Assembly: GCA_001724265.1 (NCBI GenBank)
Contig: MEDY01000279.1
Span: 1 to 41,020, forward strand
DNA: 41,020 nt
Source: Rhizaria sp. SCN 62-66
Lineage: Eukaryota
Direction: 5' to 3'
Below, piece by piece: positions 4,459 to 40,252 of the stretch (position 1 is its first letter; the number at the start of each line of letters is the position of its first letter). A program made the position numbers and the translations under genes. The notes under the pieces are model-generated. The model made no database searches. It was not told the origin of the DNA and saw nothing but the letters and a program-made list of their open reading frames with translations.

Positions 4459-7400
4459 TTACTGGCGCTTGGCACTCCTCTTAACCTTGGCACGGCCGGT
4501 CCGGCGCGCGCCCGCGGCTGCCGCAGCGTCGCCGGAGCCGTCGCTGGTCTGGCTCTTCTTCTCACCGTCGGGGCTGTGTCCGCTGCGGGGCGCGTCTGTG
4601 CCGATGACGGACATGGACACGCCCATGGCCGTGGCGTCGCGATCCATCGCGAAGGTGTCGCTGCTGCCGACCACGGTCGACGCCGCGAAGGTCGGCGCGG
4701 GGACGAGCCCCGAGTCGGTGCTGGCGAGCGAGTCGCCGCCGTCACTCGCGAACGACGTCGTGTAGCCGTAGTCGGGCGACCCGCCGGGGTAGCCGGGCTT
4801 GGTCGCCACGGTGCCCGCAGTGGTCGCGGCGTGCTCGACGACGGGGATGGTCTGGAACGGGGTGCCCTCGTCTGAGTTGTCGTTGCCCGCACTCGCGCCA
4901 GTGAAAGCGAGCGCACGCGGCTTCAGCGCGCTGGGCTCGTCGTTGTAGCCGCTGTTGTTGCCGTTGACTGCGGAGTGGAACCGCACAGGCACCGCGGCCG
5001 CGGCAGGGGCGGCGGCGACGGGGGCGGCGGCGACCGCGGGGGCCTCGGTCTCCTCGTCCTCGTACTCGTCCTCCTCCTGCTCGTAGCCGTTGTTGTACTG
5101 CTGGCGCTGCGCGGCGTCGTGGCGCGCCTGCGCCTCGGCCAGCATCTGCTGCTCGGCGTAGGCCGCGGCGGCAACGACGTCGTGGTCCGCCTGCATCTGC
5201 CGTAGGTGGCCCTCGAGTGCCGACGTCGATGTCACCACGGAGCGGTGCTGCGCCTGCGCGGGCATCAGCGGGCGCGTCACGAACCCGCCGGACGTGGCGC
5301 CGTGCATCAGCACTTGCTGTTGCTGGCGGATCGCCGCAGACGACGCCGGCGCGGGGCCAGCGGCTGCTGCGGGCGCGCGGCCTGGCGCAGGCGTGGCTAT
5401 GAACGCGGGAGTCGCGGGGACGGACTGCGTGGGCGCGGCCTTGGCCGCAGCCGCGAGGTTGGAGCTGGAGGAAGAGGGCACCCCCTCGACGCCGCCGCTG
5501 CTGGTGGCGTCGGTGGGGCGCACCTGCAGCATCGGGCGCGGCATCGCGCGCGACGTGGCGCCCGCGCTGAAGGACATGCGCTGGTACGCGGGCACCATGC
5601 CCAGCGACGGCGGCGCGCCGTTCTGCTTGCTGGCGATCGCGGCGGCGCGGGCCGCGGCCAGCTCAGCTCGCGTGGACGCAGCAGCCGCCTCGCGCGCCGC
5701 GGCGTCCTGCTGGCGCTGTCGCTCCTCGGCGGCCGCGCGCTCGGCGTTGATAGCATCCATCAAGTCGCGGCCGGCGTCGCTGCCGTTGACCGACGGGCTG
5801 GGCGGGCCCGCGCCCGCGCCGCCGCCGGCGCGCAGCATCACAGACAGACGGGGGCGGTACACCTCGTCCTCGCCGTTTTCGACGTACTCGCCGTTCTCGT
5901 CCGCGCCGTAGTTGTTGTGGGCGTTGCGCGAGGGCGAGTTGCCGAGACCGAGCACTGCGGAGGCGCGCTTGGCCTTGGCTGTGCCGTTCTTGCGAGCGCG
6001 ACGGCGCTCAGCGCCCGTGGTGAAGTCGAGCTGCGACATCTCCAGGTCGCCGCCGCGCTGGGCACGCAGCTCCGCGGCGCGCTTCTGGCGGTCGGCGTCT
6101 CTCCGCTCTCTCTCGGCCTCGGCGCCATAGTCGTCGGCCTCGGTGGCGTTGTCGAGCCCCAGGTCGCGGGCACGCGCGTAGGCGAGACGCTTTTGCTCGC
6201 TCTTCATCTCCGCCTGGCGCTTTCTCCGCAGCGCGTCTAGCTCGTCGGGCGTGAGGCCCTCGCCTCCGTTGCGCTTGGCCTCAGCCTCCTCGGCGTCGAG
6301 CTCGGCCTGGAGAATGTCGTCCTCGAGCTTGCGCAGCGTCGAGAGCTCGGAATCCGCCTTGAGGGCCTCGGCCGCGTCAGACTTAAAAATGGCAGAAAGC
6401 AGGAAGATGGCGATGGCAGTCTTGGCGAGAATCGACACCATGCGGAGCAGGAAGATGTCGAGGGCGTTGGACAGCGCGGAGGACTCGATCCACTCGACCG
6501 TGGCGTTGGCGCGGAAGAGGTCGAACTGCATGCCGTAGACGAGGATCATCATGATGCAAAAAAACACCCACATGGTGAGGAAGATGAATCCAACAAGGCG
6601 AAGACCACGCGGGAAGCGTTCGAAGAGCGGACGCGTCTCATACCACTTCATCAGGTGCTCAAACGACACGTCAACCTGGGTGCGGAGACGCAGCTTGAGC
6701 TTCTGCTCGTTGCGCGGGTCCATGCGGCCCGACGTCTTCTGGCCGTAGTGGTTGTAGCGCCACGCCGCGAGACGCGCGATCTCGTTGAGCTGGATGCGCT
6801 CGACGGCGGGCGTGCACTTGGAGAACCACTTGAGCTGGTGCTCAGGCTTGCCAACATACGTGTCAGTGTTACCTTCGCCGGTGTAGCGCAGGAAGCAGAG
6901 GTGCTCAGCGTACGTGTACAGCATGGTCTTAACGCGCGCCTTCTGCGTCAGCGCGAACACGAGGGAAAGAATGAAGCCAATCGGCAGCATGATGGCGGCC
7001 GAGATGACCGAGATCGAGATAAACGCAAGCTGCGCCTGATCGTTACCGTAGAACATGGCGTTGACGAAGTAGCCAGATAGGAAGAGCACGCACGCAGTGA
7101 GCGCGCGACCCGCGGACGAGTACGAGTGCGCGTCCTCACGCAGGAAGATACTCACCCACAAGTGGTCATGACGCAGTGAGTAGATGGCCTTCGTCTTGAG
7201 CTTCTGGAACGCGGTCATCTCGACTTCGATCTCAGGGTTTTCCGTCGCGTCGGTGCGCTCTGCAGAGACAATCCATTGGCGGTGGAGTTTTCTCATCGCC
7301 TCCTTGTCCTTAATACGGTCGATTCTAACGGCAACGACGAAGAAGATGGCGCAGATGACGAACCACACGCAGATTGCGATCAGCGGCACGGGGTGCTTGC

Positions 7401-10400
7401 GGACGTTCTCGGGCGTGAGGTTGAGGAAATCACGGGCACTGATCGTGTTGAACGAGGGCAGGAAGTCCGTCATCTGGATCTTGGACCGGAACATCGTCAG
7501 GTGCGTGCAGCTGCACACAGTGAAGGTCGTGTTGAACGACACACGCTTGCAGCCATCGGTGCTCCACGCGCCACCGGTACCCGTGGCTCTCGGACTCCAG
7601 TACTCGCACACCGGCGAGAAGGAGCCGTCAATAGCACTGGGATTGGGGATCGTGATGATGAAGGCCGAGTTCGTCTGCGTGGTGTCGAACTTCTGCGTCT
7701 GCGGGATCGGCACAGTCAAGCTGTCGCCGACCGTGACCAGGAGCGGCGTGGAGCCGCTGCGCGCTTGCATCGACAGCGATACAAACGACGACGAGGAGGT
7801 GCCATTGAGGTACTCACCATCGGGCACCGAAGCCAGCGCCATGAGATCCGTGCTCTCGATGACCGAGAGCACCATGTTGACGCTGCCCGTGTTCGCAGTC
7901 GTCATTGAGCCTGCGATGTTGTTCGGCAAGGTCACACGCGCACCGCCGGAGGGCGCCGTCACGATCGAGGGCGCGGCGCCAGCATTGGTTGCGATGTGCT
8001 GCGTGACGAGCTGAATGCCACCCTGCGACAGCGAGTCGGCGGCCTCGCCGGAGACGGAGGGGCCCATTGTGTTAAAGGCCAGCACGGCCAACTGCGCAGG
8101 GATCAGGTTGATCAGCGCAGCGGCCTCGGCGCGCATGGCCGCGATGAGGGCCTGGTTGTCCGCCGACTCGGGGTTCGAAGATACGTCCTTAGTGACTACG
8201 CCACTGTGGGTGCGCGACGACAGCGTCAGGAACGACGATGATGCCGAGCCCTGGGCAGCCGCAGCGGCAGCCGCAGCCTCAGCCTCATCCTGCGCGACAG
8301 CGGCAGCGGCGATCTTGTCGCCCTTGCGCGCGCGAATGCGGTTCATGAGCGCGGCACGCTTCTTGCCGATGAGCACGCCGTCCTCGTTCACGTCCTCAGG
8401 GCCCGCGCCGATAGCGGCGTAGGGGTCCAGCGGCAGCAGGCGCGGGTCGTCGCGGAACCCGTTGGCGCGCGCGGCAGCGACCTCAGCCGCCTCGCCGGGG
8501 TCGGCGACTGGGAGGGGCACGCCGAGCACAGTCATGATGGTCTTGCCGACTGCGTTGGCGACAGAGTGCAGCACGCCAGTGCCGGCGCTTGGGCCCGCGC
8601 CTGTGCTCGTCGTCAGCGTGCTGGACGCGCGGCCCGCGGTCGTGTTGCGGTTGATGAGCGCAGCCTCAGAGTCGAACGAGCGCATGATGTTCTTCAGAGT
8701 CATCAGCATCGCGTTGGCCGACGGCGCGCGCAGCGTGGGCGTGCCAGACACCATCGTGAGGCCAGCGGCCTGGCGCATCTGCATCTTGAGCGCGTACGAA
8801 CGCACATCCGCGGTCAGTTCGAGTGGACGCGCGCAAACGCCAGCAACGAGCTGCAGAGTCATTTCGGACTGAGTCGTACTGCCTTCCCAGGTAGGCACGT
8901 TGGGGAACTGGGGCAGCACGGGCGTGCTAATGAGGCTCGTGTCCTCGAGCTCCTGGCGCAGCGCACTGAGCGCGACCTTGCGCATCGTCTGCGAGGTACC
9001 CAGCAACGTCTGCACAGCGGGGTCCTGGATCTGCTCCAGCAGCTGCAGACGCACTGCGGCGTTGCCCTGAACGTCGGCAGCGGTAGCGGTGAGACGAATG
9101 AGAATATTGGCAACGACGACGGTGAAGGAGTCGATACTGACCCTGTAGCTGGCGTCAACAAGACCAGAGTTAAGGTACATGCTGACTGGCAGCAGAGTCT
9201 CGCTGGTACTATCGCGCGCCGCCAGTGTGACGGTCACGGCCACAGACGTTACCGCGTTGTACTTGTCGTAGATAAGTGCAGTGAACGTGACCGTAGCGGG
9301 GAAGTCGAGCGAGACAACGAGGCGCGGCGAGAAGGAGATAGGCGCAATCTCGGCCTGCAGAGTCACCGCATCCAGACCGGTGCCGAAGGTGGTGTCGAAC
9401 ATGAACAGGTAGCGCAGCGGCTGGTCGCCGTCCTCGTCGCTCCATTGCTGGCAGTAGAGCGCGAACGGTACACCGGCGCGCAGCACGTGCGAGGTCGTCG
9501 AGGTGGACTCGGCGCTGCACGCGCCACCACTGGGGGGCTCGTTGATCGTCAACGTGATGGTCGACGACGCGAGCTCGTCAGGCAGCGGCCCGACCGGGTA
9601 GCTCTCAAGCGACAACGTCGTGGGGACGCTCGCCGCGGTGGGGTAGAGTGAGGCGCGGAACGTGTACGTGACACCCGCAGTGAGTCCGTTGGCCGCGAAC
9701 GCGAGCGCATTGTCGAGCAATGTTGCCGTGTGTCGGATCGAGAGATCTGTCATGTCGACATTACGCGTGTCGCAGGTCCAGTACACCACAGGGTCGGGCA
9801 GCGAGTCGTCGTTCTTTGTGACCACCGCGCGCATGCGGGTGATGGTGCCCGCGGGGAGCTTGTCAGAGGCCTGACCCTGAATCAAAACGGTGTAGTCATG
9901 GGTGATATTGACCAGCGTGATACGCGTAGTCGTCGAGGCTGAGCGCATGTTCTTGGTGATCGTGAGCGTGATGTCAATGTCAGAATCAGCAGCAGGAAGA
10001 AGGTCCGAAGCCTCAATCTCTGCTGTCACATCAACCGGCATAATCCAGGCAGGCCAGCACAGCTCGCTGGGAGAATTGACAACGGCGCAGGTCCACGAGT
10101 ACATCAACTCAAGGTCGTCGCCCTCATCCGGGTTGTGATCGCGGTCAAGCGACTGTACACCAGACAGGCTCAACGTCGTCGTGAGCGGGTGCGTGCCAGA
10201 CAGCGCCAGGATGCGCGGCAGCAGCGGGCCAACTTCGCAAACGACGGTGATATCCACATCGGCAAGAATGGCAATGCTTTGCTGTTCCACAGTGACGCGG
10301 AACTGGTACGTGTATCCCGGCTTCAGCGCGTAGGCAGAAATAGTCAACGCATTGTTATCCACGGTAAAGCTAGCATCCGGGGAGGTATCCAGCAACGCCC

Positions 10401-13400
10401 AACTAACAAAGAGGGGCGTGACCACATTCTTGGCTGCCGCGCTCGAGTTGGTCCGAGCGGTGGCATACTGCAGCAATACAGGAATGCGCGTTTGCAGAGA
10501 GGATGAGACATAAAACGTGGGACCACCGGGGACGGAGATGGTCGGCATCGGCATCTCCAGCATCACGACGGTTGTACTCACACTCACCGTGGTATCGTTG
10601 TACCAGGGTTTGACAGTAAGGCGCAAGGTGTAGTTGTACCCCGCGGGGAAGAACGACGCAGGCACGTTGAGCACGGGCATGTACGACGGCGAACTCGTGG
10701 CGCCATAACTCGCTGAGACAACAGTCTGCGCAGTCACCAGCGTGTTAAACGAATTGCGCAGCGTCGTGAGATTCAGCGTCGGCAGAGTGCTCGAGGCAAT
10801 GGCCCACGTATAGTTGAACGCACGGCCACCACCACCGGTGCTGCGGAGCGACGAAACAAGGAAGGCAGCGTCGAGGCCGACCACCGACGGCGTGTCAAGC
10901 AGGGGCACGATGGCAGCGGGCGCGGTGCTCATCGCGACCACGGGCGTCTCTTCTTGGTTGTACATCTCAGCGCGGTCGGCCTCGCCGAGCGTGCGGATGC
11001 GCGCGCCACGAACGGTAATGGTAGTGTTCACGCCTAATGAGAAGTCACGGCCGAGTTTGACACGCAGTGTGCGCGCATTGCGCCACGAGCACGTGGGCGA
11101 CTGTCCGAAGCGGTTGACGGTCGACGTCGGGAAGAAATAGGAGCAAGCGCCGGTGCCACCGGTGGCTGCAGGCTGGTTGGTGTCTTTGTTGAAGATAATT
11201 TGCACCGAGGCCATCGAGTTGGAAAAGCGCGCGACAGTGATCTGCGGGAACGGCGGCTCGCAGATCGCGGGGTCAGTGCAGACCGTGCAAACAGGGCGTG
11301 CCTGCCACCCCGTCGCGGAGCAGCCAAACTGCGCATACGTGAGCTTCGTGTTTTGAATGTAAAAGTGCTGGTTGCATTGCACGCGCGCATAAGAACCAGC
11401 AATCGTGTTGCTGTACGTCACGACGCCGTTGGTGATGTTGGGAGGAACACCGCAGTCGTAAGACGACACGCAAGGGCGCGACGTTGCCGTGCGTTCCTCA
11501 TCCACGGGGAGCCAAATCGCGGACTTCTCATCCGTACCACAGTAGAACTGGATCGGGTTCGTCTGCGACGGGTCGCCGGGGTACGCCGGCAAGGGGTCGA
11601 AGCCCTGTGCACAGCGGCACGTCATTGTCGATTCCTGAATGAACGTCTCGTCCGTCGCCGTGAGCGGAGTATCACCGTACTTGTGCGAGCACGAGTAGGA
11701 CACCCACTGCGGATTATCGCAGCGCGTGGAGCGGCACACCAACGTGTTACTGAAGGTCTCTGTGTCGATACATTCAGCCCATGACGCATCTTCGTTAGCA
11801 ACGTACTGATCGTCGCACTCGACGTAGATAGAAGAACCCTTGTAAACAGTCGTTTCCGTGGGACCCGAGCCCTCACGGATAGCGCGGCCGTTGGCAATCG
11901 TGGGCAGAGTGCACGTGGGCAGCATAGCGCACAACGGGAGCGTGACATTCGTCGACGCAATCCAACCGTTGTCAGTGCACGTGAGATCGTACGTCTGTTG
12001 ACTCTCGATCTTAGCGACATAGGGGTACTCGCAGTAATACATGGCGGTCGTGTTGCGAGAGTACGTGCCGTTGGCGTTAAGTGACGCGGCCTGCTGGTTG
12101 TAAGAGTAACCCACCGAGTCCGACACGTCCGGCTGCAGCGGGTTACACGGCGTCACAGCGCGGCAGAGTGTGCTGTCGAGCACATCAAGATCACCGGTGC
12201 TTGTGTCCAACACTGTGAACACGTTCATCGCGTCGCCGCCGTCGATTCCACTCTTCATCTCCAGCGCGACCGCGTTGGGGTAGAGATTTCCCTTGACGTC
12301 GAGGTGTGAGTCCCCGTCCTCGTTGAGACGCCAGATCATCGTGCCTTCTTCACCGCGCATGCAGTTGAAATAGACAAAAGTCGTCTCCGCACTGCCTGCA
12401 TAGCCGTCAGCGCACGTGCACTCAGCAGTCGACTCGTAGGTCGGCATTGAAATGACCGCGTCATCCAGCCGGTAGGTGCACTGAAAGCCAGCCACCTCGA
12501 TCAGGTCGCAGGACTTCTCCACGCATTCCACGGGAGGCTCGAAGCCCTTGACTGTGCACACGGACGTATCGGTGGACGCGGACGGCTTGTAGTATTCAGC
12601 ACACGTGACACGGATCGTGTCGCCAGTGTAGATAATCTCGAGTCCCGCAGTAGAGGCGGTGGTACCGTACGCGATGTCGGGCAGGTCACACGTCGGCATC
12701 AGCTGGCAGTGCGAGTCGATATTAAACGGACCCGCCGGATCCCAGCCCCAGTTCTGGCACTCGAAGTTCGCCGTGCGCACGTTAGAGTTGATGGGCTCAG
12801 TCGGGTACGCGCAGCCGACCATCGCGGTCGTGCCGACAGGGTACGCACCAGTGCCCGGGCTCGCCGACGCCGTGTACGAGAGCGTTTGATTAAACTCACC
12901 CGACTCGCTGTAGACTTCGAAGTCGAGGCAGGGCACGCGCAGAGCGCAGTCGTTCGCTGCCTGCGACTGCGAGGCTGCTGCCCAGGAGTAGGGCAGCTCG
13001 CCGAGGTCAGAGCAGATATACTGCAGCGGGGACGAGTCGGCAGCGCCGTAGTAGGTGGGCGAGCACGTGCACACGGCGCGGTAGCCGGGGTCGTAGCGCG
13101 TGGTGTTGGCGGCGACAGGCTGGCCGTTGGTGCCCAGATACGAGCACGAGAGCGACTCCTCCGACTTGGGCAGGCACCGGGCCTCGCCGCATGTGACGGT
13201 AGACCACAATCCGTTGGCGGCGCAGGTGGAGGTGCTGATACTGTTGACGGGCAGGTAGCTCGTGTCGCAGGTCACGGTGGCATTGCTGCCGAGTGCGCGG
13301 CCACTGGTGTAGGCCGAGGTGCCGTGGGCCACGACGAGCGAGCCACAGAGCGTGGACACGCACTTGAAGCTGCTGATGTTGTACGTCGAAGAAGCAACCC

Positions 13401-16400
13401 AGGTAAAGACGTTAGTGCTCTGCTGCACGCACGTGAAAGAGAGAGAGTTGGGTGCGTTGCCACTCGGCGACAGTCCAGCATTGCAAGCCGTGGTCGAGAT
13501 CGTACCAGCAGGCAGCAACACCGACACGGGGCTCAGCGTAACACCCGAAGCGTCAGTGTAGACGTAGCCGTAGTTGTCGTCCGTGGGTACGGTTCTCGGG
13601 ATACACGCCGTCTGCGGCTCGCACGACAGCGTCTGGCTCAGCAGGCCCGTCTCGAGACACGTCGCCGTGGCGACGCCGGCGGTGGGCTGGTACTGGGATG
13701 CGCACGTCAGCGTAACCGTCTCGTCGCGGTAGGCCAGCGAGGTCGACGTGACGCCGTTGGTGACAGCAGGCACGCTGCACGAAGGAACGTCCTTGCAGAG
13801 CTGGATGTTGGAGGGCAAAAGTTCGGACCAGTCATTTGCCGAGCACGTCGCGGTCTGCGTCGTGATGGCGCTGTTGATGGGCTCCTGGGGGAACTTGCAC
13901 TTGCGCGTCAGAGCGGTGCCGGATGGGTAGCCGCCAGCGGAATCGACCGACACGGAAATGCCTTGGTACGTGTACACATCATCGTACGCACCTGTAAACG
14001 GAAGGCAGTGCGCGGATTGCGCGTTACAAGTGACGATAGGGTACCACGTGCCGTCTTCCTGGCATGTCGGTTGTTCGTCCGACGAAAGGTTGTAGGTATC
14101 AATGCACGAAAGGAGGACGGTTGAGGTCACTTCCTTGAAAGGGGCGGAGTAGCCGTCGACGATGGCGTAGTCCTGCTCATAGCCAGGGCACTTAGAGGCG
14201 ACGCAATTGAAGGACGTCGGGTCGGTGATGCGCTGATCGGGAGACACCCAAAGAAAGTTCGAGCTGCACGTCGCTGTGAAGTGGTCGGGCAGCAGCACCG
14301 ACGAGGAGGATGTGCCAGTGGGACAAACCACGGACATAGTGGTGCCGACAGGATGCAAGAACGTCGTCGAATTGCTGCTGTACGTCACGGTCGCGCTCGT
14401 GTCAAGTGCGTAACAGTGGGTTTGCGTCACGCACGAGAGGGTGACGTCGAGACCCTTAGAGTCACAGTTCGCGGTTCGAATGGCGTTGGTCTGTTCATAG
14501 CCGATGGGGCAGAAGATGTCGACGGAACCACCATACCAGACCTGAGACGGCACGTAGTCGCCAATGCCGTCGAGCGAGGGCAGAGTGCATTCGCCGCGGT
14601 ACACGCAGAAGTTTTCAACGTCAAACTCGGTGTCCTTCCAGCCGTACTTCTCGCAAGTCGTCGTGCGCGACGGCACCGATGCGTTGGCGGGCTGAAACGG
14701 GTACGAGTCGCATCGACGCGTCACAACAGTGCCAACGGGCAGCACAGCGCCCTCAACGGGGTTGTAAACGGTGCCGTTGTACGTATACACGACGTCAATG
14801 ACGTTCTCGGAGAATTGCTCGCACGACATCGTGGGCTGACAGAAGGCGTCGGCGTTGAACTCCTGCCACTGCCCGACTGAGTTGTTCTCAGACTCGCAGG
14901 TGGTCGTAAACGTCTGGTCATTTGTGATGGGCCACCATTCGTTCGCGGCGTTGCAGGCACACGTCGCCAGAGTCGCCGGTGCGTACAGTCCCTGGCTCGC
15001 CGTAGTAGCGTACGAGCACACCAGCGATTCGAACGTGATTGGCTCGCAGTACGTGCGCACGCACTCATACGTCGGGTCCCAGGCGTGTGTCTCAACCGTG
15101 CACTCATGCTCAGTCTCGATACCGCTGTAGGCCGCATTGCACGTGATAGTCGCGACACCGGTGTCGAACTTGCCCAGCTCGTCGTACGCCACAGTACCCG
15201 TCTCACCAAGCATGATCGATGGACAGTCGGTGGCCTCGCACGCAAAAGAGACGTTGGTGATAAGGGTGTTGGGTGCAACGACTTGCCAGTCATAGTTATC
15301 GACAGCATCCTTAACGCACCTGAGCTGAATCAAATCGGGGTACGACTTGATACCAGAGAGACCTGAAGCACACTCAAGCGTAGTAACTGCGTCAACGGAA
15401 TAAATAGGACCGGTCAGTGGTGCGTTTGTTTCGCCGTCAAGAATCGTGATTGTAAACGACTCATCTGGATCGATAGGGTCACGGCAACCTGACTGAGTGA
15501 CGCAGGCAGGCGCAACCTCGAAAGACCCAGTCCCAGTACACATGACCTTAGAGAGGCCATCACGGGGCTCCTAGCCGTCGCCACAGGTATACGTCAAAAA
15601 GTCGTCCTCGACAACTTCCTGACCAACATTAGGGACAGACGTGACGGCGTAAGCGAGGTCGATCGGCACGATGCACTTCGCGCGCGCGACGCATATAGGT
15701 GTCGTGAACGTGGAGGCACCGTTGAACAAACCAGTCTCAGGATCACACACGGCCTCCGGAGCCGACTGTGCGGTCATTTTTCCAGTCGCAGTGCACACCA
15801 TGCGCACATGAACATTCGGGAAGTACAAAGTGGTCTGATCGTCAATCAAATCCTTTGTAACTTCAGATTGGTCCGTGTCGTCGATGCGGAAGTACGTGAG
15901 TGCGTGCAGGCCGTCGGTGGACGGGTAGCTACCCGTGGTCACGGCGTTACACTGGTGCACAACGCAGGGCTGCGCGGGGAGCGATACATCCCAGCCCGAC
16001 GCCGTGCACTTAGCCACGGAAGGCAGGCCGGTGACGAGGCCTGTGCCGGCCGCGCAGGAGAGTGCGAGTGTGGTGTCGACGAGGTTGTGCGTGGCGTTGG
16101 CAGCATCGTAAGCGACGCCGTTGACAGTGGCGATCACAACTTCGGCCCAGGGGAATGCGTCACAGTTGGTATTCTGACACGGCGTCGGATCGGCCGCGAT
16201 TGTGCCAGCCGTGCAGTAGCTGAAAGTGATGGGCGAAGAGACCTCAGGGTCAAGAACGGCGTTGCCTGTGCACGCGCACTCATAGCCGTGGCCCTCATAG
16301 AAGGTGACGGTCTGACTAGTGATGTCTTGGACAACCTGCGAAATGACGCACACGCCGTTGGTAATCTTGGGCAGCGCGGGGGCTGTGCACGCTGGAATGA

Positions 16401-19400
16401 GAACGCACTCGAATTGGTCTTGAACAGCCATTCCATTCATTTCCACTCCGGTACATTTGAAGACGCCGGTGGTAGAGCTCGCCCGCGGTTCGTACCCCGG
16501 CATACACTTGACATTCAGGGACTCACCGATCTCCATGTGGTAGTCGTTATTCGCGTCGAAGATTACGGTGCCGTTTGAGGTACCTGTGACTTGGAAGTGA
16601 AAGCTCTCGAGGAGCGCGGTCGTCACCGTACAGTAGTCCGAGTTGTCATCACACTCGGCGAGCGGATTCTCCATTAACCCACCAACCCATGCGTACGCTC
16701 CGTCGCAAGTAGCGGTAAAAAAGTCTGGATCTTCCATTTCCATGCGCTCCATCCACGTCGGACACATGAGCTCAACAACGGTGTTCTAGGCGTGGAAGCC
16801 CGCGAATGATGCGTTGGGATTGTACGTGTACAAAGCATCCACGGCGACAGGGAACGCTGCACAGCCGTTGACAACGCAGTTCGGGATGTTCTCCCAGCCG
16901 TCAGCGCCGCAAGTGAGAGTCTGATCACCGTTCGGGTCCGCGGTGACCATGCTGTTAGACACGCACGTGGCCACGCCTGTGGCGCCAACCTCAATGTAGC
17001 GCGCAGTCTCGTGGCTAACATTGTTCCACACGACAGTGAAGAGATCGAGCGCGAGATCGCTGCGACTGCACTTGGTACACTGCAGCTCGTTGCCTGTGAT
17101 CGTGCCGGTGTCGCTGTCGCAGACGAGCGTGCCCGTGTTGTCAACCGGGTACGAGCCCACGGGGCACTCCTGCACGCCGAGCGCGTCAACCGGCCACGGC
17201 GCATCCGAGGCGTTAGGAGGGTACGTAAAAGGAATAGTATCCGTAGTGGCCGTGAAGGCCGGGCACGAATCGGTGGCACAGCCGCCGATGATCTTGCCCT
17301 TCGTCGTGCAGTACACGGACACGTCGCCAGTGCCGCTCTCGTTCGGGTTGAAGGGGACGGAGCCGTCAGCACAAGACAAACCAGAGTAGGTCACACCATG
17401 TTCAAGAATGTTGGCAAACTTAGTGTTCTTGGGGATAGCAGAGTTAGCGGCGAGGTTCAAGCCCGAGGGGTAGCCGTCACGCAAATCACAAAGATATGCG
17501 GCGTCCTGACACTCAGAGAGCGAGAATGCGGGCGTCGTCGACCCAGGCACGGAGTCACCAGCTTTGTACCAGTCCCCGTTGAGACAGACCACTTGGCCAA
17601 CAGAGAGGCCACCGTCGAGGCATGCGACGTTCGACACCTCGCCGTGGTTGCGCGACACGACCATGAGCTCGGAGGCCGCGGCGTCAGCGTTGATGAGACT
17701 CGGCAAGGAGCCCGAGCAGGGCATGTATGCGGGCATGGTGAAGTCGTTGAGAGGCAGTATAAGCGTAACACCACCAACCACGAACGAGATCCAAGGCCGC
17801 ACGACAGAGCCACGACGGAAGGTCATGTCAAAGTCAAAAGTGGTCGAGCTCGAGAACACCGCGGCTGTTTGTTTGACCATGTTGGTAAGATAGAAATCGT
17901 AGGGGCCATTCAGTGTCGCCGTGATCAAAGCGCTGGCAAATGAAGTGGGCAAGTCGTCAGAGTACGAGTCCGACAGCTCAACGGTCATGCCCACCAGCCC
18001 CAACGGATACGAGAACAGCAGCGGGGCCGTAACGATGGGCACACGATACTTCATCGGAGGCAGCCGTGCGAACGAGCGGGACTGGAAGTTATCTTGGAAA
18101 GATTCGAGCACGACGAACGTGTCAAGCGTTGGCGCACGCTTTAGCGGAGGGAGAGTGCATTGAATGGTGAATGTGGACCATGAGTCAGTATGGATTTGAT
18201 TGAACATGGTGGAGCCTGGGACTTCGAAATTTCCACTAACAATGTTCCCGTCTGGAGAACTGAACATGGGATTGAAAGGCATCGAGTTAGAGTCATCGAC
18301 GGCATTCCAACGAGTGTCAAATGATACGTCACATGACACCTCAAAATCTATAATGGCTTCCGGCTCGGAGTTGACCATAAACGTGTCCTTATAGACATCC
18401 GGTAGCGTGATGATGAACGTGAGATCGCCAGATGTGTGATGGAACATCGGAAGCGTGAGAGTGAGTTTGTTCTGGACATAGTCTGAAGATGTGGCCACAT
18501 ACGGACCAGCAACAGGATGTAACATCGCGGTCGTCATCGGCGGCTCCACAGTAACTCCCTGATCCTCCGACTTGCCAATCGGGTAATAGAAACTCTCAGC
18601 AGCGACGAATGCGTCCATGGCGCCGTCGCTGTACTGCATCTGCAAGGCGAACGAGCTTGCATTGGTCGGGTACACGTAGCCGGTTCCGGTGAACTTAATG
18701 ACAAAGGTAAACGCAAACACGTTCTCCAGCTCCTCGAACGGTGCGAAAAGCGCGCCAGCGCATGCGAGAGTGTGCGAGCCTGCATCGTCGAGCCAAGGTC
18801 CGGGGACCTCGACCGTCAGCGGTTCCGTCGAGCCATCCGTATGGTGGAGAAACACCACGGAGTCGGGCGCGTACAGCCCTTGGTACACGAGCTTCATGCC
18901 GCTAAAACCGTTCGTGGCGACGTCGAAGGCAGTCTTGAGATTTGTGCGGAACATGATAGAAATCGCAACCGTGTGCGTCGTGTCGGTGTGCTGGACGTAG
19001 TGCGGCACCAGAGTGACTTCCGGCATCAGTGGCGCTGGCGTGATGTCAATCCCCGTGGGATTGTCGTCGCGTACCAGGGTGTAGGTCGCGGTCTCCATCG
19101 TCGCAGTTGGGCCGTCGATCTCGTTGGGGTTGGGGTACTCGGCCGAGATGCACACAACGTAGAAGAGCTCGTTATGGAGGTCCAACGGCATGGCGTCGAC
19201 GACATACGAGTAGGCCGTGCTCGTCGTCGTTGGCGTGGCGGTGGCTGTATTGTCCTGCGAGACCGCACCGGTGACAGTGCACGTCAGCTGCTGCCCCTCC
19301 GTGTCCTGCGTGAAGGACGACGGGGACGAGACCGTGAGGGGGTACGCAGTGGCGTCGAAAACCTTCGAGTCGAGTACGAGAACGTCGTAGTCAAGGCTTT

Positions 19401-21210
19401 CAATGCGCTGGCGAGCGAACACCGGCTTAGTTAGCAATACTGGATCGGCCGCAGCTGGGTCGTAAGCACGCACCCACGCGGAGTCGGCAGCGAAGCCGGT
19501 CTGGACCGAGAAGGGCAGGGCGTCCGAAGACGCGGGCACGAACGTCATCGTAAAAGCGGCCACCACTGTGGGCGGCGAGGTCGCGAAAGAGCATGCGACG
19601 ACGACGGGCAGGGAGTTGTACAGCGGAATGTCAAAATAAAGACCGCCTACGTCGTAAGTAACCGGGGTTTGGTTGTTAGGGCTCAGCGGAGACTGGTACT
19701 GGCAGGAAAAGCCATAGAGACCACCACCCGAAATATCCTGGTCCACAAACGCGTACACGCGTTCCACTATGCCGTCACCCTGCAGAACGAACTGCAGTCC
19801 CTCGTTCAAAGAGCCCATATCGCGCACAAACAGGTCACTGATGTACCGAATGCCGGTGGGCATAACGGCCACGGGGACCCCAGACATCATCACATAATCA
19901 TTGAATGGCGATGCATATCCCTTGTTGGTCTCGATATAGAGCGGCGTTGTGTGCATAACTGTACCACGGTCGTCAGCGGACACTTGGCTCGTGAAAGAGC
20001 AGTCAGCGATTATGATGGCGCGCGGCGTCGACGACACAAAGCGGCCTGCGGGGGCGTTAGGATAGCCCGCACGCGCGCCGGGCACGGTGAAGACGCAGCC
20101 CTCTGTATTCTGAAAAAAGACCGAGAACGTGGGCTGCTCCACTGCATCTGGCTCAACAGGGCTATAATCGTTGCTGAAAGCGAAAAAGTAACGGGCGCGG
20201 GTCAGCCCACCGATGTTGTAGAGGTAGAGCTCGTAGCCGCCCGTCTGGTCGAAGGCGATGATGGGGTTCACCATCGGCGCGACGACAAGCGCGGTCGCGA
20301 TCGCCGGGTGGCCCTGGAGAATAGGATAGAACAGAGTTGCAGTGACGGTGTGAGATGAGCAAGCGGGTTTTGCGGGAGTCAAGGTGGCGGTGAAACAAAG
20401 GCGACTAAACGAAACAACAGATAAAGCGGTGCTGTGTCCAACTCCTGTTCATGACCAGGAAGTATATGCTGACATACCGTGAGAGCCGCGACAAAGATGC
20501 TGGGCGGGAGGAAGGCGATGTCCATCGATAACAGCACGCCTTCAGGAAAGTACTCCATCCAGTTTGAAATACGGGTAAGAATCATCGTCACAGTCCACGT
20601 CGACGGGTCGTTGCACTCTTGCTCGCTCGACACAGCAAAGAGGTCTGCCATGGCTACCTAGGTACGGAGCGAACCCTGGCCAGAGAGAGTCAACTCCTGC
20701 GTGGAGTTGATTGCAGTGCAGCGGGTGAAGGTGAGAGCCACATCGACATCGAAAATCGTACTACCGACAACGCCACCAACGTTGACCACGAGGTCGCCTG
20801 TTGCGGTGGGAACATCAGCCCATGAGGCCGGGTAGGGGTAGGCAGCGGAGAAGCCTTTGAGCTTGATTTTGAAGCTACCAACTGAGTCGCTCGACTCATA
20901 GACCAAGCTGCTGGTCTCTGTGCCCATCAATACAGGCGACAGTGATACCTGAGAGGAGCCCGCAACTGTGGAAGCAATTGTGCATGGTTATATACATGAC
21001 AAACCAACAGCACGGGGGTGAATGAACAGTCGATGGAGGGAAGATGTGAACACGAGGGCAGTTTAAAGTGAAGCAGCTCACGGCGGAAGATCTCGTGGAA
21101 GATAATAAACGCATAGCGAGTCGTAAGAATGTCAGGTAGATGAGAAGAGACGTACCAAAAGCTACACATAGCGCTAGCACCGTGACAAAGAGTCTGTGGA
21201 GACCCAACAT
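4459..21210 (-). CDS. Giant polycystin-1/REJ-like adhesion receptor (~5465 aa): signal peptide, ~1000-aa beta-rich region, long sushi/CCP array, REJ, GAIN/GPS, 5 TM, low-complexity tail. Exons 21210-21156, 20965-20478, 20313-4459. Contains 3 in-frame TAGs.
   Basis: The spliced N-terminus MLGLHRLFVTVLALCVAFVAGSSQ is a signal peptide. ORFs 20658-20930 and 20379-20651 share a frame, as do 16786-20382, 15571-16767 and 4459-15543; each pair is separated only by a single TAG. CCP-like C..GY..C..W..C repeats, REJ motif NEPPSGGAC...CQQWSDED..PLRYLF, GPS CEYW...WSTDGC...CSCTHLTMF, PKD1-type HLWVSIF. Confidence 0.85.
6383..7395 (-). other. Five-helix transmembrane region resembling the PKD1 N-terminal TM domain, without PLAT
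   Basis: Hydrophobic segments PLIAICVWFVICAIFFVVAV, ALTACVLFLSGYFVNAMFY, FISISVISAAIMLPIGFILSLVF, LVGFIFLTMWVFFCIMMILVYG and ALDIFLLRMVSILAKTAIAIFLLSAIF. Confidence 0.75.
7489..7612 (-). other. GPS motif with intact HL|T autoproteolysis site
   Basis: VCEYWSP...WSTDGCKRV....TVCSCTHLTMF matches the GPS consensus. Confidence 0.9.
9230..10910 (-). other. REJ (PKD/REJ-like) module; boundaries approximate
   Basis: Ig-like repeats (FNYTW, LKPGYTYQFRVTV, SLDRD...YSWTC, LTAGVTYTF) followed by INEPPSGGAC...WSDED..PLRYLF...YDKYNA. Confidence 0.75.
11300..17700 (-). repeat. Array of roughly 30 divergent sushi/CCP-like Cys-rich modules; count and boundaries approximate
   Basis: Recurring ~60-70 aa units such as CGVPPNITNGVVTYSNTIAGSYARVQCNQHF...CSATGWQARPVC. 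The array continues across the TAGs at 15571 and 16786. Confidence 0.8.
20314..20477 (-). other. Intron 2 of the giant receptor CDS (164 nt, phase 0)
   Basis: ACG|GTATGT ... TCCTATTCTCCAG|GGC. Splicing resolves the frame difference between ORFs 20379-20651 and 16786-20382. Confidence 0.85.
20966..21155 (-). other. Intron 1 of the giant receptor CDS (190 nt, phase 1)
   Basis: TTTG|GTACGT ... CTTCCACAG|TTGCG joins the signal-peptide exon in frame to exon 2. Confidence 0.8.
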
Positions 21211-21237
21211 GGCACCGATTGTGTGTCAACAAGGCTT

Positions 21238-21481
21238 CTGCAAAGGGGGGTTGAGGCCAATCAAACTAGGATGCACACTGGGGTCAAGACAGACAATAGG
21301 AAATGTGTGAGACAAAAGGTACACCAGAGGCAACAGATGTTTCATAACAGGACGCAAAGCAAGATCAACAAACGACGGCAAAGGCACCATAATTGCTCTA
21401 AGAAGGAGCCTCTCCTCTTCTTCAACCAGCGTGCTTTGCTTGACCAGGACCGAAAAAAGAGCAAGATTGAAAAGATCGTAC
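21238..21481 (-). other. Probable 5'-UTR intron of the giant receptor gene (244 nt)
   Basis: CTG|GTACGA donor, pyrimidine-rich body, and CCCCCCTTTGCAG acceptor 27 nt before the ATG. Confidence 0.55.
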
Positions 21482-21786: not shown

Positions 21787-23694
21787 TCATTTCTTCGTCC
21801 TCCGCGTCTGCTCCTTGTCCAGAATCGCGTCAAACATGCCCGCTTTTCGCTCCAGAGCGAGGATCTCGCGGTCCAAATCGTCCAGAACGACCACATTTGA
21901 CGGGATCATCGTGTCCGTAAGTCGCGCTGCAGACTCGACCTTGCCGTTGCCACCACTGCCACTGCCGCCGCCGCCCGCGCTCTTGGTGTTCCTGCCCTTG
22001 GCGCCGGCGCCTGTCGCGCTCTTGCTACCGCCGCTGCCGCTGAGGCCCTTGTTCGCGCCGACGGGGGCCAATCGCGCGGGCTGCTGCTGCTGTTGCTTTT
22101 GAGGTGGCAAACGCCGGGCGCCCATCGTGTTGCTTGTGCCGCCACCCGCCGCACCCTGCGCCGCGCCGCCCGCGGCCGCGGCCGCGCCGGCGTCGGCGTC
22201 GGGCTTGAGCAGCGCACGTAGCGACCGGGAGGGTGAGAGCGACCGCGTGCTGGCGCTGTGCACCAGGTAAGGGTTGTCGTCGCGGGAGAGCTCGTTGTAC
22301 CCGAAGCCGGGCTCCACCACGCGTGCGAAGTGCGGGTCCGGGTACGGGTGCTGCGGCGGCCACAAAATGAAGCACAACATAGAGTGAACGAATATGAGAT
22401 GGCGATGCGGACGTCGAAGACAAGTCAACATAAGGAAAAAAAAGAAGAAATTGTTCGCAAAAAACGCTGCATGAACAATACAATTAATCGTACCTGATAA
22501 GTCCCACTCGACAGCAAAGCCTGCTGCGAGGATGACTGTCCCAGAGGCGGCAACGACGCCGGCACAGGTCCCTGTTTCTGCTGCTGTTGGAGCGGCGCGG
22601 TGCCATTAAAAACGTTTCCGTTCGCCGCGCTATTAAATTGCTGTTGTTGTTGCTGCTGTTGCTGTTGCTGCTGTTGGGACAGCTGACCGCTCATGAGCTC
22701 GGCCGTGACCTGGGCCTTGAACGCGCGCCGCACAGCGGGATCTGCGAAGCGCGAAGCGGCGACCGAAGGCGCGGGCGCGAAGGCCGCGGCGCGCGGGTGG
22801 TGCAGCATCTTGCTCGCCGCGCTCGCGCTTGCGGCCGCACGGGAGTACGACTCGCGGTCGCTCAGCGCACCCACACCGACCGTGGATGACCCGCCGGGGA
22901 CGCCGCCCGCGCCACCGGAGGGCCGCCGCGGGGAGAGCGCGTCGGAGTCACCCGCGCCGCTGCTTCCGCCGCCGCCGGAGAGGTTGTGGCGCGTGTATAC
23001 CGTCTGCATGCGCGCCTGCGACAGCGTCACGCCGTGCCCACCGACGCTGCCATTGCCGCGGGCGCTGCTGCCGTCGGGGGACGCCGAGGACGTCGTGTGC
23101 AAGAGTCTGCCGTCGAGGCTCGGCGGCGGGCGCGGGCGCGAGGCACTCGCAGGGCTGGCAACACTGCCTGTGCCGCTGCTGTTGTTGCCAAACGACTGCG
23201 ACAGGGTCATGGCCGCGTAGGCCTGCGCGTGTGACTGCGAGTCTCCGGGCGCGCGCTGCACCGCGCGCGACGGGTGCGAGTGGTGCGGCGTAAAGCGCCC
23301 GGGCGACAGAGCCAGCGGCGGGTGGTGCGCCGGCAGCGCGCTCGAGTGGTACTTGTCGCCGGCAGCACCACTGGCACCGCCCGAACCACCGGCCGAGTGC
23401 GCGGGGTCGGCGTCGCGGTAGCTGTGCTCGTCGCCGCGCGCGTCGCCGTGGGCAGCAGAGTGCTCGCGCAGCGTCTGCAGGTGTTGGAGAGTCCGCACGC
23501 CGTCAGTGGCCTGGTGCCAGGCGAGCTTGGGCTGGTATGCGTGCTCGCCGACCGTCACGCTGGCCTCGTGCGACGCCGCCGCCGCCACAACGTAGGGCGC
23601 GGCCGCCTGGGACAGAGCCTCGCGAGACGACACGGGAGGACGCGCGGCGCCGCCCCCGTCTTCGTCACCGCCACCGTCACCATACGACTGTTGC

Positions 23695-23726
<32 letters not shown>

Positions 23727-24347
23727 CTGTTGCTGCTGCATTGCTTGCTGCTGGGGCACGCGGGCGATGTGGCTGGGTGGGGGGATGAGCGAGCCGACGA
23801 CGTCAAACTTGATGCGGATGCCGGGGCGAACCGCGGGCTCGCCCTGGTCGTCAACGCCGTAGTCCTCCGCAGACGCAGTGTAAGGGTCGCTCGAGTTGAT
23901 ATTGCTCGATGACTCGTTGCCGTTGGAGGCGTGAGAGTTGTTGTTGCTTCTAGAGTTCCTAACTGTGTTGTTGTCGTTGTTTCTCGAAGCAGAACGCGCT
24001 GTAGCTTCATCGTCGGCAGGCAGGGACAAGTCATTGTTGCTGCTAGGGTCCCCCTTGGTTTGCTTCTGCTGGTCAGGGACAGACGTCACGGAGCCGTCCT
24101 GATGCAGCATCGTTGAGTCCTCTTCTTCAACAGTAGAAAAGCCGAGGTGGTCCGTGCCGGCCGCGCGCTGCTGCTTGCCGGCGCCGGTGTTGGCCACCGA
24201 CGAGGCGAGCGACGGGGCCGAACGGGTGGGAAGGTCCTCTTCGTCCGAGTCGGTGTCACCGGGGGCGGGGAACCACGAGAAGAGGCGCTCCTGCTCGTAT
24301 GGAACGTCAATGCGCTTTGCCATACCCTCGGGCCAGTCGTTAGACAT
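21787..24347 (-). CDS. Hypothetical, largely disordered Gln/Ser/Ala-rich protein (805 aa). Exons 24347-22494 and 22350-21787.
   Basis: ORFs 22425-24356 and 21787-22431 join in frame through a CAG|GTACGA...CCGCAG|CAC intron. Ends at TGA. Short C-terminal helical segment (LDDLDREILALERK). Confidence 0.75.
22351..22493 (-). other. Intron (143 nt, phase 0)
   Basis: Canonical GTACGA donor, T-rich body and CAG acceptor; restores the frame. Confidence 0.8.
23688..23752 (-). repeat. Mixed CAG/CAA polyglutamine tract
   Basis: (ctg/ttg)n on the + strand; encodes QQQAMQ17. Confidence 0.9.
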
Positions 24348-24793
24348 CGTGGACAAGAAGGGGATAAGCGGCTAAGGCGGGGGCGCGCGGCCAGAGCAGT
24401 TCTTGAGTGCTAGAACGAGAGGACTCACGAATAAAGAGTCTGCCTGTTGTGAAACGAAGAACTGGAAGGTTTAAAGATAGAAAACGGCGTGTTAGTGTTA
24501 TTTGGGTTAGGTTCATTCACAAAATCCCAGATAACGGATTTCCGATATTGATACGATCCCAGCAAATCCGGCAGTCTTGACCTCATCGCCACAGCTGTTG
24601 TAACGGTCGCCGAGCTCAACCGCAGCGCCCACCGACATAATGTCATTTCAAGTCTATAGATAGAGCATTCTAAGCATAACAGGTCGTAACTTGAAACTAT
24701 AGTTTGTATTTCAATTCAATAAACAGTTGGGTCAATATAATACTTTCATGGTTCTTGTTTACACAGCCAATGCGGTGGTTTTGTGTTAGCGGT

Positions 24794-26514
24794 TCAGATG
24801 TTAGGCAGCAATGTGTAGAGCTTCTTCTGCTTGCCCGCCTCATCAACCCGCGTCGTCGACGCCGTGGTCTTGCTCATCAGCGCCTTGATGATCGTGCGTA
24901 CCTCGTCGCTGGCATTCTTGGGGTTGAACGGGTGCAGCAGCTCGCGCAGCAGGTCCGCACCGACTATCTCGGCCGACGGGTACTTTGCGGCGAACACCGC
25001 CTTGACAGACGCCACCGTCACCGCGCGCCCATTCACGTGCACCACCCCACCCACCACAACGGCCTCCGCGCCCGCGCCGCCCGCGGGGGCCGCCGAGCCG
25101 CCCGTAGCAGTGAGTGAGAGCCGCAGCGGGGCGTCTGCGCCGCCGCCGGCCGCGTCGGCGGCCCTGGAGCTGGGGCGCGCGCGCTTGGCCGTGTGGGTGA
25201 TCGCGTTCTCACTGTTGGCGCTCGCGGCGGCGATCGCGGCCGCAAGGGCGTTGCCGCCAGCGGACGCACTCGAGCGCGCGATGCCCATGCCCGCGTACGC
25301 CGCGGGCGCGGCACTGGTGGTCGCGGCGGCAGGGGCGGCGGCGGCGGCGGCGGCGGCGGCGGCCGCGTCGTCGTCGTCCTCGTCGTCCTCGTCGTCCTCG
25401 TCGTCCTCGGCCGCGGCCGCAGCGGCAGCCGCGGCCTCGGTGTCGGCGTCGGCGGTGTCGAGCGCTGCGAAGCCTTCTTCGCGGAGCGCCAGGAGCCGCG
25501 CAAGCTCGGCCTTGTCGCTTGTCTTGCCGAGTAGCGATGACTTGAAGTTGGCCTCCCCCTAAGCACGCATGAGGACAAGATGTAGACGTAAACGGGAAGG
25601 ATTATTACATGTACGAGTGAAAAATTACGTTTGAACAAGATTAGCTATTGAGAAAATTCATGATATACTTATTCCATATCATTTTCAAAAACTCATAGGA
25701 TCAGAGCCACATTAAACACATGACTTGATCAAGGATTACATGTGCGCGCATTTCTCATTTCGCGGCGTACCTGGTCATCAAAGGTCTCGAAGTCGTCGGC
25801 GTTCTCCTCATCCGCAGCCTCGTCGTCGTCAGCCTCGCGCGCGTACTCAAGCTCCTCCGCGAGCTGCCGCGGCTTCCGCGCCCCGAAGCCCTTCTTGGCC
25901 CCCGCCTTCTTACTATCGCCCGCGGGCGCGCCGCCATCGGTGCCGTCGGCCGCAGCGTTGCGGCGGCGCGTGAAGGACATGTCGAGCAGCGACACGCGCT
26001 CTGTGTTTGCGGCCTCCTCCTCGGCCTTGAGGCGCACCTGCTCCAGCCGCTTGTCGTTCTGCCGCGCGGCCTCGGTCTCGCGGAAGCGCTCCGCCTCGGC
26101 CACGGTCGCAAAGCGGTCCTGCGCGGCCACGCGCGTAAGCGAAAGGAACTGGGGCGGCGTCGCGTAGTAGCTGTTGGTGCGCGCGTCGTACGAAAAGAGC
26201 CAGTAGTGGCCGAAGTCGGGCTTCTCGAGCATGCCGTTGTAGCGCGTCCCGGTGCCCCTGTCCGTGAGCTCCCACGCGCGTGAGCCCACGCCGGTGGTCT
26301 CCAGCCGCGCGTTGGCGGCCACCGCGGCGGCCGCGGCAGCGCGGCGCGTGATGGCGTCGGGCGCGCGCGTGAAGGACGCGAGCCCCGCTGGGGGCTGCAG
26401 CGTCAGCTGCGCCGAGAGGTCGCGGGCGTTGATAACCTTGGCGAGCAGCGGCGTGCCGGGAGGCAGCGGCCCGTTCACGGGCGCGTTGCAGTAGACGGGG
26501 ATGCGGATGCTCAT
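24794..26514 (-). CDS. GTF2F1: Transcription initiation factor IIF large subunit (RAP74/Tfg1-like, ~502 aa). Exons 26514-25771 and 25558-24794.
   Basis: The N-domain WELTD..GTRYNGMLE....YWLF......YYATP......RFATVAEAE resembles the RAP74 dimerisation domain (G.EG..Y.IF...A.P...LT.EEAE). It is followed by an acidic middle (LEY......ETFDDQ) and a winged-helix-like C-terminus (VTVASVKAVF...DLLRELL). The start codon is inferred. Confidence 0.75.
25559..25770 (-). other. Intron (212 nt, phase 0)
   Basis: CAG|GTACGC ... GTGCTTAG|GGG, AT-rich; joins ORF 25729-26667 to the frame of ORF 24794-25288. Confidence 0.85.
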
Positions 26515-27536
26515 CGGGCGCGCGACGCCTGTTGCGAGGGCGTGGGCGAGTGGGGACGACGCCGAGGAGGAAGCTTGCGACGAGAAGCGTGTTGCTTTTT
26601 GATCAAAGTAGTTGGGAGCGAGAGGACTGTGCTTAGAGGAAAGCAACGCAAAGAAAACGATGGGCAACAGTCGTAGATGTGTAAATGTAATGCTATGAAG
26701 CTTTGAGAATGTGCGTGTAGATCATGACAGAGACAGAGACATATACTTAGTAGTGGATTAAGTATCAGAGCCGTTGCTCATCGGCAAGACCCACTCAGGA
26801 TAGGAACACTGTTTCGCGGGGAAATCGAATAGCCACCAAATACTACTGAGATCAAAAACCACGAGAAAGCATACATAGTGCTACATTTACATATACATCG
26901 TGTAGTCTATGAGTTTTCATTCCGCCGGTTGGATGTCTTTGTTTGGTGGTTGGTGTAATTCTTACTGGACCGAAAAATTTGTTGGGTAACAAAAGCTGTA
27001 TGTGGTCAGACTTGACCCCAGCATTCAAGACAAGATATCATTGTATATTATGTTTTTTAGTACATATCTCAAGGTCTACTTTTACGAAAGGTTGCGTTGC
27101 ATGTGTTTTGTGCATTTAAAGTCAGCTTGCTACGGTGTCGGAGGATTATGGAGACAATCCAGGGAATCCAGCAGTCTCGTCCTCTGGCGAACAAAACAAG
27201 CTTCATGTTCAAAGCTGTACCACTGACACTTTAAGTCGCATTTCTTTCATGTCAAAATATGAGCTGCAGTGGTATTACATGTTCGGTGTATGCAGTCCGC
27301 TCTGTACTTGATCAGTACTCATTCAATATCGCAGGGTCCTATGCACTTATCGACCATTCCCTGCTTTTGCCCGCCTGAGTGCAAAATACTCCCAACGTTG
27401 AATATGAGAAACATATGACCTCGAATCCCCTGATAACTGCACCATGTTGTCAATACCCCTAACATTTTGTATAGTCGTCTGCTGAGTCCTACCTTCTTTA
27501 GGCGTCATCGGCGGTGTTTTCCATCGAAGAAACACC

Positions 27537-30862: not shown

Positions 30863-30911
<49 letters not shown>

Positions 30912-40221: not shown

Positions 40222-40252
<31 letters not shown>

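Follow-up and report, generated by a model that had tools for sequence, protein, structure and literature searches.

Contig MEDY01000279.1 (41,020 nucleotides; called the window below) carries on its minus strand one very long gene whose reading frame is interrupted by three TAG codons and by no other stop codon. As far as its sequence can tell, the encoded protein is a polycystin-1/PKDREJ-like REJ-GPS receptor with an array of sushi modules, and the gene looks functional and conserved, and orthologous to a stop-free gene of a related organism. The three codons (TAG1, TAG2 and TAG3, numbered in the direction of the gene) are genuine genomic codons and no assembly errors. The observation is real, and it is more than chance or error. 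The parts of the gene are as follows.

4459 to 21210, minus strand: whole gene with three exons, 5,465 codons plus TAA, and a spliced coding sequence (CDS) of 16,398 nucleotides (nt); its product starts with a putative signal peptide and a divergent N-terminal region, continues with sushi/CCP repeats, a REJ domain and a GPS motif, and ends with a multi-pass membrane region and a tail of low complexity
21156 to 21210, minus strand: exon 1, with the ATG at 21210 and a signal-peptide-like start (MLGLHRLFVTVLALCVAF...), read from the sequence
20966 to 21155, minus strand: predicted intron 1, GTACGT...ACAG, 190 nt, placed by frame logic
20478 to 20965, minus strand: exon 2, which carries TAG1; based on the count of stops in the coding frame, the GC content of third codon positions (GC3), and a weak collinear similarity to the N-terminus of the orthologue
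20658 to 20660, minus strand: TAG1, codon 121, in the context ACC TAG GTA
20314 to 20477, minus strand: predicted intron 2, GTATGT...CTCCAG, 164 nt, GC 0.50; its acceptor brings exon 2 into phase 0 with the long open reading frame (ORF)
20313 to 4459, minus strand: exon 3, from an independently derived splice model
16786 to 16788, minus strand: TAG2, codon 1357, in the context GCC TAG AAC
15430 to 15693, minus strand: the sushi/CCP module with TAG3, matched to beta-2-glycoprotein I by phmmer against the PDB (E 7.1e-5)
15571 to 15573, minus strand: TAG3, codon 1762, in the context GGC TAG GAG, where it occupies the aromatic position that follows Cys2-x-x-G in the sushi module
9175 to 10194, minus strand: REJ domain, PF02010, E 4.5e-27, profile positions 95-429 of 452
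7489 to 7614, minus strand: GPS motif with HL|T (...CSCTHLTMF), PF01825, E 9.4e-11
6400 to 7480, minus strand: membrane region with about five hydrophobic segments, recognised by eye
4459 to 4461, minus strand: terminal TAA, codon 5466; the orthologue has the same ...KRQ end

Stop codons of the spliced CDS occur only at codons 121, 1357 and 1762, all of them TAG, and at the terminal codon 5466, whereas the alternative frames of the same CDS contain 118 and 189 stops. The open frame from 20448 to 4462 on the minus strand comprises 5,329 codons with two TAG, no TAA and no TGA, and no frame break was found across the 5,465 codons of the gene. Exon 2 has a single stop (TAG1) in 163 codons of the coding frame versus five in each alternative frame, and its GC3 values of 0.66 and 0.72 on the two flanks of TAG1 are at the coding level on both sides. 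The far lower number of stops than in the other frames marks this frame as genuine coding sequence, in which the TAGs stand out as exceptions. The initial annotation had listed the same positions and codon numbers for the three TAGs, in a gene of 5,465 codons lacking internal TAA and TGA codons as well as frameshifts, and the independent gene model reproduced all of this.

The in-frame status of TAG1 hinges on the two predicted introns, which were derived from the sequence by frame logic. Three other splicing solutions were considered and rejected. A nearer TTTAG acceptor for intron 2 does not keep the phase of the long ORF, a GT..AG stretch of 21 nt that surrounds TAG1 falls well below the length of both credible introns, and the use of TAG1 itself as a splice acceptor would put exon 1 out of frame. 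Parts of the gene are covered by contigs of the RNA-labelled libraries X5 and X15, a type of data that cannot demonstrate transcription, and none of the RNA-library contigs listed lies over a TAG site. One contig of the polyA RNA library X15 (20731-21170) crosses predicted intron 1 unspliced, which may reflect DNA carry-over, pre-mRNA, or a wrong intron model.

In addition to the REJ and GPS matches, Pfam recognized a Sushi family (PF00084, E 7.5e-10, best stretch 14035 to 14133 on the minus strand), and sushi-like modules were placed across about 11,400-17,300 by a regular expression and by reading. A PDB sequence search with the GPS region matched only the GPS of adhesion G protein-coupled receptors (GPCRs; best E 3.2e-8), and an ESM Atlas search returned a GPS cluster only. 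The GPS motif of the initial annotation is thus confirmed, and so is a sushi module that spans TAG3. In three modules of beta-2-glycoprotein I, the residues in the column of TAG3 are Y, F and Y. In 16 modules of the window protein itself that were picked by the regular expression, the same position is occupied by Y (nine modules), F (two), L (two), S (two), and the TAG (one).

The predicted receptor resembles the REJ-GPS receptors polycystin-1 and PKDREJ, and the GAIN/GPS arrangement of adhesion GPCRs, in the order of REJ and GPS with its HLT cleavage motif, in the multi-pass membrane region, and in the long extracellular repeats. Unlike polycystin-1 and PKDREJ, it has no PLAT, PKD-channel or seven-transmembrane family according to Pfam (no match to PF01477 or PF08016 at E up to 5), and its extracellular part consists of sushi-like modules and of an orphan region at the N-terminus, about 1,100 amino acids long. 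This N-terminal region (17400-20313; protein P0002) matches no Pfam family, and its sole relative among 1.84 billion cluster representatives is one orthologue cluster; it is predicted to be an orphan extracellular domain. The REJ domain, the GPS motif and the membrane region all lie 3' of the three TAGs, so that truncation at codon 120 would remove every recognisable domain.

An exhaustive HMMER search of the 1.84 billion representatives retrieved three proteins, namely the window's own ORF, a member of one orthologue cluster, and a weak match. The orthologue P0005 was aligned over 800 residues with an E value of 2.6e-88. Its 90% cluster contains P0007, a protein of 5,332 amino acids that has no stop and shares the C-terminal end of the window protein. 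In a global alignment, the window protein and P0007 are collinear throughout, with an identity of 33% before TAG3 and of 39-57% after it. Conservation peaks in the membrane region, with 57% identity over codons 4301-4800, and in codons 1763-3300 the cysteines are conserved in 90 of 90 cases. Word-indexed protein searches around the TAGs returned the window's own ORFs only (P0002 nearby, the longer P0004, and none shorter), and no loci related to the C-terminal 1,001 amino acids were found in metagenome, genome or viral contig collections.

The codons of the related organism opposite the TAGs could be read from L001, DNA of a second strain of that organism, whose orthologue likewise starts with a hydrophobic leader. 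Opposite TAG2, the orthologue has Val (GTC in L001), followed by a conserved NTV. Opposite TAG3, it has Tyr (TAC in L001) within a conserved YEPRDG, and TAC differs from TAG in the third base alone. Opposite TAG1, where the alignment is weak, the residue is G (L001/P0005) or D (P0007).

The straight alignment bears on the possibility that the TAGs are spliced out within unrecognised in-frame introns (exitrons). Each TAG is preceded by a C and could thus form a YAG acceptor, and in-frame donors of the GTG type lie 246 nt upstream of TAG2 and 180, 228 and 237 nt upstream of TAG3. These donors are, however, of the GTGNG type, whereas the two credible introns start with GTACGT and GTATGT, and no intron with a strong donor and a pyrimidine tract that would span a TAG was found. 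GC3 stays at the coding level on both sides of TAG1 and TAG2, the orthologue aligns straight through TAG2 and TAG3 including the YEPRDG motif, and sushi modules would lose cysteines if such introns were removed. A joint that skips a TAG is not seen in any contig. Exitrons are thus hardly credible as an explanation.

The orthologous codons also bear on adenosine-to-inosine (A-to-I) editing, by which UAG would be converted to UIG and read as Trp in some life stage, as in filamentous ascomycetes; full-length protein would then be made only from edited transcripts. Editing is known to yield exactly such TAG-only interruptions in a few intact genes: Fusarium graminearum has 71 otherwise intact genes with TAG-only premature stops, six of them with two sites (PMC10776026), and editing that corrects premature UAG stops is also treated in two further reports (PMC4817773, PMC11156358). 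With the pseudogenes of Fusarium and Neurospora that carry premature stop codons, the window gene shares this pattern, and the aromatic sushi position of TAG3 could accommodate Trp. The window gene differs from them in that the orthologue has TAC and GTC, not TGG, at two of the sites, so that no ancestral Trp would be restored, and in that local folds of 61 nt gave no hairpin signal (z scores of +0.30, +0.50 and +0.63), the A being in a loop only at TAG2. In addition, the host is not known as a fungus. Corrective A-to-I editing of UAG is known only from Sordariomycetes, and REJ, GPS and sushi domains are not known to be typical of those fungi. Both considerations count against editing, which we judge to be improbable.

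A third possibility is a gene-specific programmed read-through of ordinary UAG codons, by which mostly truncated products and little full-length receptor would be made. It would explain both the restriction to a single gene and the constrained ORF downstream. The contexts TAG GTA GCC, TAG AAC ACC and TAG GAG CCC, however, do not match the leaky motif UAG-CARYYA, and folding of the 120 nt after each TAG is not better than that of shuffled sequences (z scores of +1.32, -1.03 and -0.72). Three leaky stops in series would, moreover, lead to a vanishing yield. Programmed read-through is therefore very improbable.

Next, the TAGs were compared among assemblies and strains. The contigs of four runs were aligned to positions 4300-21400. 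Run X3, from another study, is identical to the window across the gene, TAG1 included. Run X4, from a third study (2025), represents a strain with a divergence of roughly 0.3-1%, with 88 substitution places and no indels over 17.1 kb. For its contig 15153-17076 (1,924 nt), the full list of 21 differences contains none at 16786-16788, so TAG2 is kept. In the same contig, a T>G change at 15572 (plus strand) converts TAG3 into TCG (Ser). The ORF that ends at TAG2 (...GFHA) exists as two protein variants, P0002 on four contigs and P0003 on three, which differ at one of 1,162 residues. TAG2 is fixed in every sampled variant (window, X3, X4 and P0003), and TAG3 is polymorphic. The initial annotation had named base-call errors as a possible refutation; independent assemblies reproduce TAG2 and TAG3. 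According to a search of public runs, the window occurs in bioreactor, wastewater and sludge metagenomes of several studies from 2015 to 2025, with no RNA run among those listed for it. The contig thus belongs to an uncultured protist of wastewater and bioreactor communities.

The surroundings of TAG3 form a hot spot of strain divergence. Of the 21 differences in the 1,924-nt contig of X4, 14 lie within 168 nt (15496-15663), where three codons have changed twice, and the local divergence is roughly 10%, compared with about 0.3% elsewhere. Recombination with, or gene conversion from, a more distant allele could have produced the tract, as could diversifying selection on the sushi module; no donor copy was found within the window. 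The series TAC, TAG and TCG at TAG3 was considered as parsimony evidence of an ancestral TAG. This argument was dropped because the surrounding tract holds three other doubly changed codons.

The strain differences were also used to analyze selection downstream of the TAGs. Codon counts could be based on 40 of 96 difference places (four runs together) in this one gene, which limits their weight as an argument for translation. In the main ORF, 39 of the 40 listed differences changed 36 codons, 21 synonymously and 15 non-synonymously. Downstream of TAG2, 18 of 31 changed codons were synonymous and 13 non-synonymous; without the hot spot the ratio was 14:7 (14 of 21 synonymous), and downstream of TAG3 it was 12:8 (12 of 20). 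The neutral expectation for this sequence is 25-30% synonymous, and the binomial tails range from 7e-5 to 5e-3. The differences listed thus do not bear out a relaxed constraint downstream of TAG2, that is, a ratio of non-synonymous to synonymous rates (dN/dS) near 1. Rather, the downstream strain differences look like changes in a translated gene. Because TAG2 is common to the strains, the differences downstream of it should postdate it, unless recombination decoupled the sites. Such a decoupling of the age of TAG2 from the remaining differences could indeed have occurred, and this weakens the case for translation. The synonymous excess without any indel is the strongest argument that translation passes TAG2, and the kept cysteines likewise argue for translation past the TAGs.

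The same data bear on recent loss-of-function alleles under the standard code. One TAG would have knocked out the gene in this species or clone, and one or two more would have followed, too recently for frameshifts or other decay to appear; the loss of the surface receptor might have been adaptive, or bioreactor populations might have drifted. This is the main rival explanation, and we consider it possible but less likely than translation of the TAGs. TAG2 is present in all sampled variants, yet 58-67% of the downstream changes are synonymous, so that recombination or a very recent sweep of TAG2 would be required. The 88 substitution places without an indel, the absence of TAA, TGA and frameshifts, and the cysteines kept throughout are likewise at odds with it. 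Nonsense paths make up 3.1% of all single-base paths in the gene, and two extra neutral nonsense hits would imply about 60 other neutral changes in the lineage. Premature stops, one of them polymorphic, and a frameshifted allele in a related organism are features that the window gene shares with segregating loss-of-function alleles or a young unitary pseudogene. Unlike a young pseudogene, it has no indels, shows a synonymous excess after a fixed stop, and has kept all cysteines.

We infer that translation passes through the TAGs, and tentatively favor the explanation that the organism translates UAG via a low-use, probably young stop-to-sense change or via efficient suppression. We regard this explanation as plausible, albeit somewhat short of probable. 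In this scheme, the ribosome would not stop at UAG, the full-length receptor would be made, and UAA and UGA would terminate. A cognate tRNA(CUA), or efficient suppression, would lead to the insertion of an amino acid at UAG, and the very rare use of the codon would indicate a young or low-use stop-to-sense change. Because TAG3 is one third-base step away from the orthologous TAC, decoding as Tyr is possible; Tyr as the inserted residue would fit TAG3, while the sites of TAG1 and TAG2 are variable. A more specific version, which we consider rather unlikely, is that the gene captures the very start of a UAG reassignment, in which UAG has gone as a terminator, is decoded (possibly as Tyr), and has come back only at a handful of weakly constrained sites. 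The view of the initial annotation, that UAG is a rarely used sense codon here, is thus upheld in part: the intact conserved gene, the fixation of TAG2, the purifying selection downstream and the lack of TAG at gene ends agree with it, whereas the polymorphism of TAG3, the diverse orthologous residues and the confinement to one gene do not.

Several observations weigh against translation of UAG, and a first group of them at the same time speaks for loss of function. TAG3 is replaced by the sense codon TCG in X4. An in-frame TAG was found in only one of eight genes of the window, and none occurs in about 6,577 other codons of stop-to-stop ORFs (41 kb), in agreement with the initial annotation, which had already noted that the other seven genes lack it. 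All three TAGs lie in the N-terminal third of the gene, which evolves faster both between species, as judged by the identities given above, and between strains (X4 shows 37 differences in 15153-18557, 21 + 16, whereas each of its contigs of 0.8-1.7 kb from 6783 to 15176 has 2-5). The orthologous residues are variable at two of the three TAG sites; G/D, V and Y have no amino acid in common, and only the Tyr site is conserved (n=3). The bases that follow TAG1, TAG2 and TAG3 at position +4 are G, A and G, which are strong termination contexts and count in favor of loss of function.

The initial annotation had also argued that random decay would usually have produced TGA and TAA stops as well. This argument did not hold. 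The GC3 of the gene is 0.77, and 60.2% of the 1,489 single-base nonsense paths lead to TAG, so that the probability of obtaining TAG in three of three cases is 0.22. Because of this share, the restriction to TAG fails as an argument for a change of the code.

Knockouts of this gene do occur, as the related organism carries a frameshifted allele. Relative to P0007, the frame is shifted after ...APTITR in L001/P0005 and, independently, in P0009 (two contigs), and in L001 the frameshift lies at about 6,900-7,150. The shifted-back frame of L001 is open for 2,792 codons, up to the end of the contig. Downstream of the frameshift, 84 of 2,743 amino acids of this allele differ from P0007, three times the upstream proportion of 23 of 2,207 (p 6e-7, Fisher test).

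A second group of adverse observations concerns the code itself. If the rate of TAG were the same in all genes, the probability of finding the three in this gene alone would be 0.09, and P0007 contains no TAG in 5,332 codons. The seven to eight gene ends of the window consist of four TAA and three to four TGA, without any TAG. The absence of TAG fits a change of the code, yet its chance probability under the standard code is 0.06-0.21 if TAG has a share of 20-30% of terminators. The gene ends include 3565-3567, 4459-4461, 34431-34433 and 34743-34745, and four of the seven to eight are TAA, at a GC content of 52-76% in 2-kb steps; the sample is too small for an interpretation. A TAG just upstream of the ORF at 22425-24371 lies in non-coding sequence. 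Neither tRNA genes (ARAGORN) nor matches to Rfam RNA families were found within the window.

Codes in which UAG alone has been reassigned are known from the rhizarian exLh (UAG=Leu), from Iotanema spirale (UAG=Gln), and from phyllopharyngean ciliates (UAG=Leu or Gln). As in these codes, UAG is the only stop codon found in frame in the window, and the gene ends are UAA and UGA. UAG is common in these codes and occupies conserved Leu or Gln positions, whereas the window has three UAG in about 12,000 codons, in one gene and opposite G/D, V and Y, which further weighs against a reassignment. For exLh, 384 UAG in 71 genes and 56 UAA and 15 UGA terminators are reported (PMC5304391), and in phyllopharyngean ciliates 78-91% of the genes contain at least one UAG (PMC11687900). 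That reassigned stops can be spread unevenly over genes is known from Amoebophrya, in which about half of the transcripts lack them (PMC6394959). A comparison of trypanosomatids explicitly found no intermediate stage of reassignment (PMC12153298). In the papers examined, an intermediate in which UAG is decoded but nearly absent from genes is undescribed, nascent reassignments having been little targeted in our search. A search of the literature on wastewater protists with UAG reassignment found nothing relevant.

Stop-to-sense changes are still argued from their end states, with codon capture set against an ambiguous intermediate, and the UAG-sense lineages described so far already use UAG in most genes. 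If UAG is indeed translated in this organism, the early steps would become observable, including the tRNA involved, the state of eRF1, and the sites of the first codons. One such codon would be fixed (TAG2) and another one polymorphic (TAG3). If the TAGs are knockouts instead, they are a useful warning that TAG-only interruptions in GC3-rich genes are by themselves no evidence of a change of the code, because most nonsense mutations in such genes are TAG.

The remainder of the window contains long ORFs on both strands, short introns that are richer in AT, and proteins rich in poly-Q and poly-A. The GC-rich DNA, the introns and the poly-Q/poly-A proteins point to a eukaryote. Pfam assigned no family to the seven other ORFs of the window. 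A gene of two ORFs at 24794-26721 (minus strand), without a Pfam match at E 0.01, may resemble the large subunit of TFIIF, with a winged-helix-like C-terminus. The two long ORFs at 34743-41018 (2,091 amino acids) and 29055-34433 (1,792 amino acids) have a GC content of 65-76% and encode Ala/Gln-rich low-complexity proteins, to which Pfam likewise assigned no family. Their antisense strands contain many long spurious ORFs, including pairs that are split by a TAG; these are not further in-frame TAGs.

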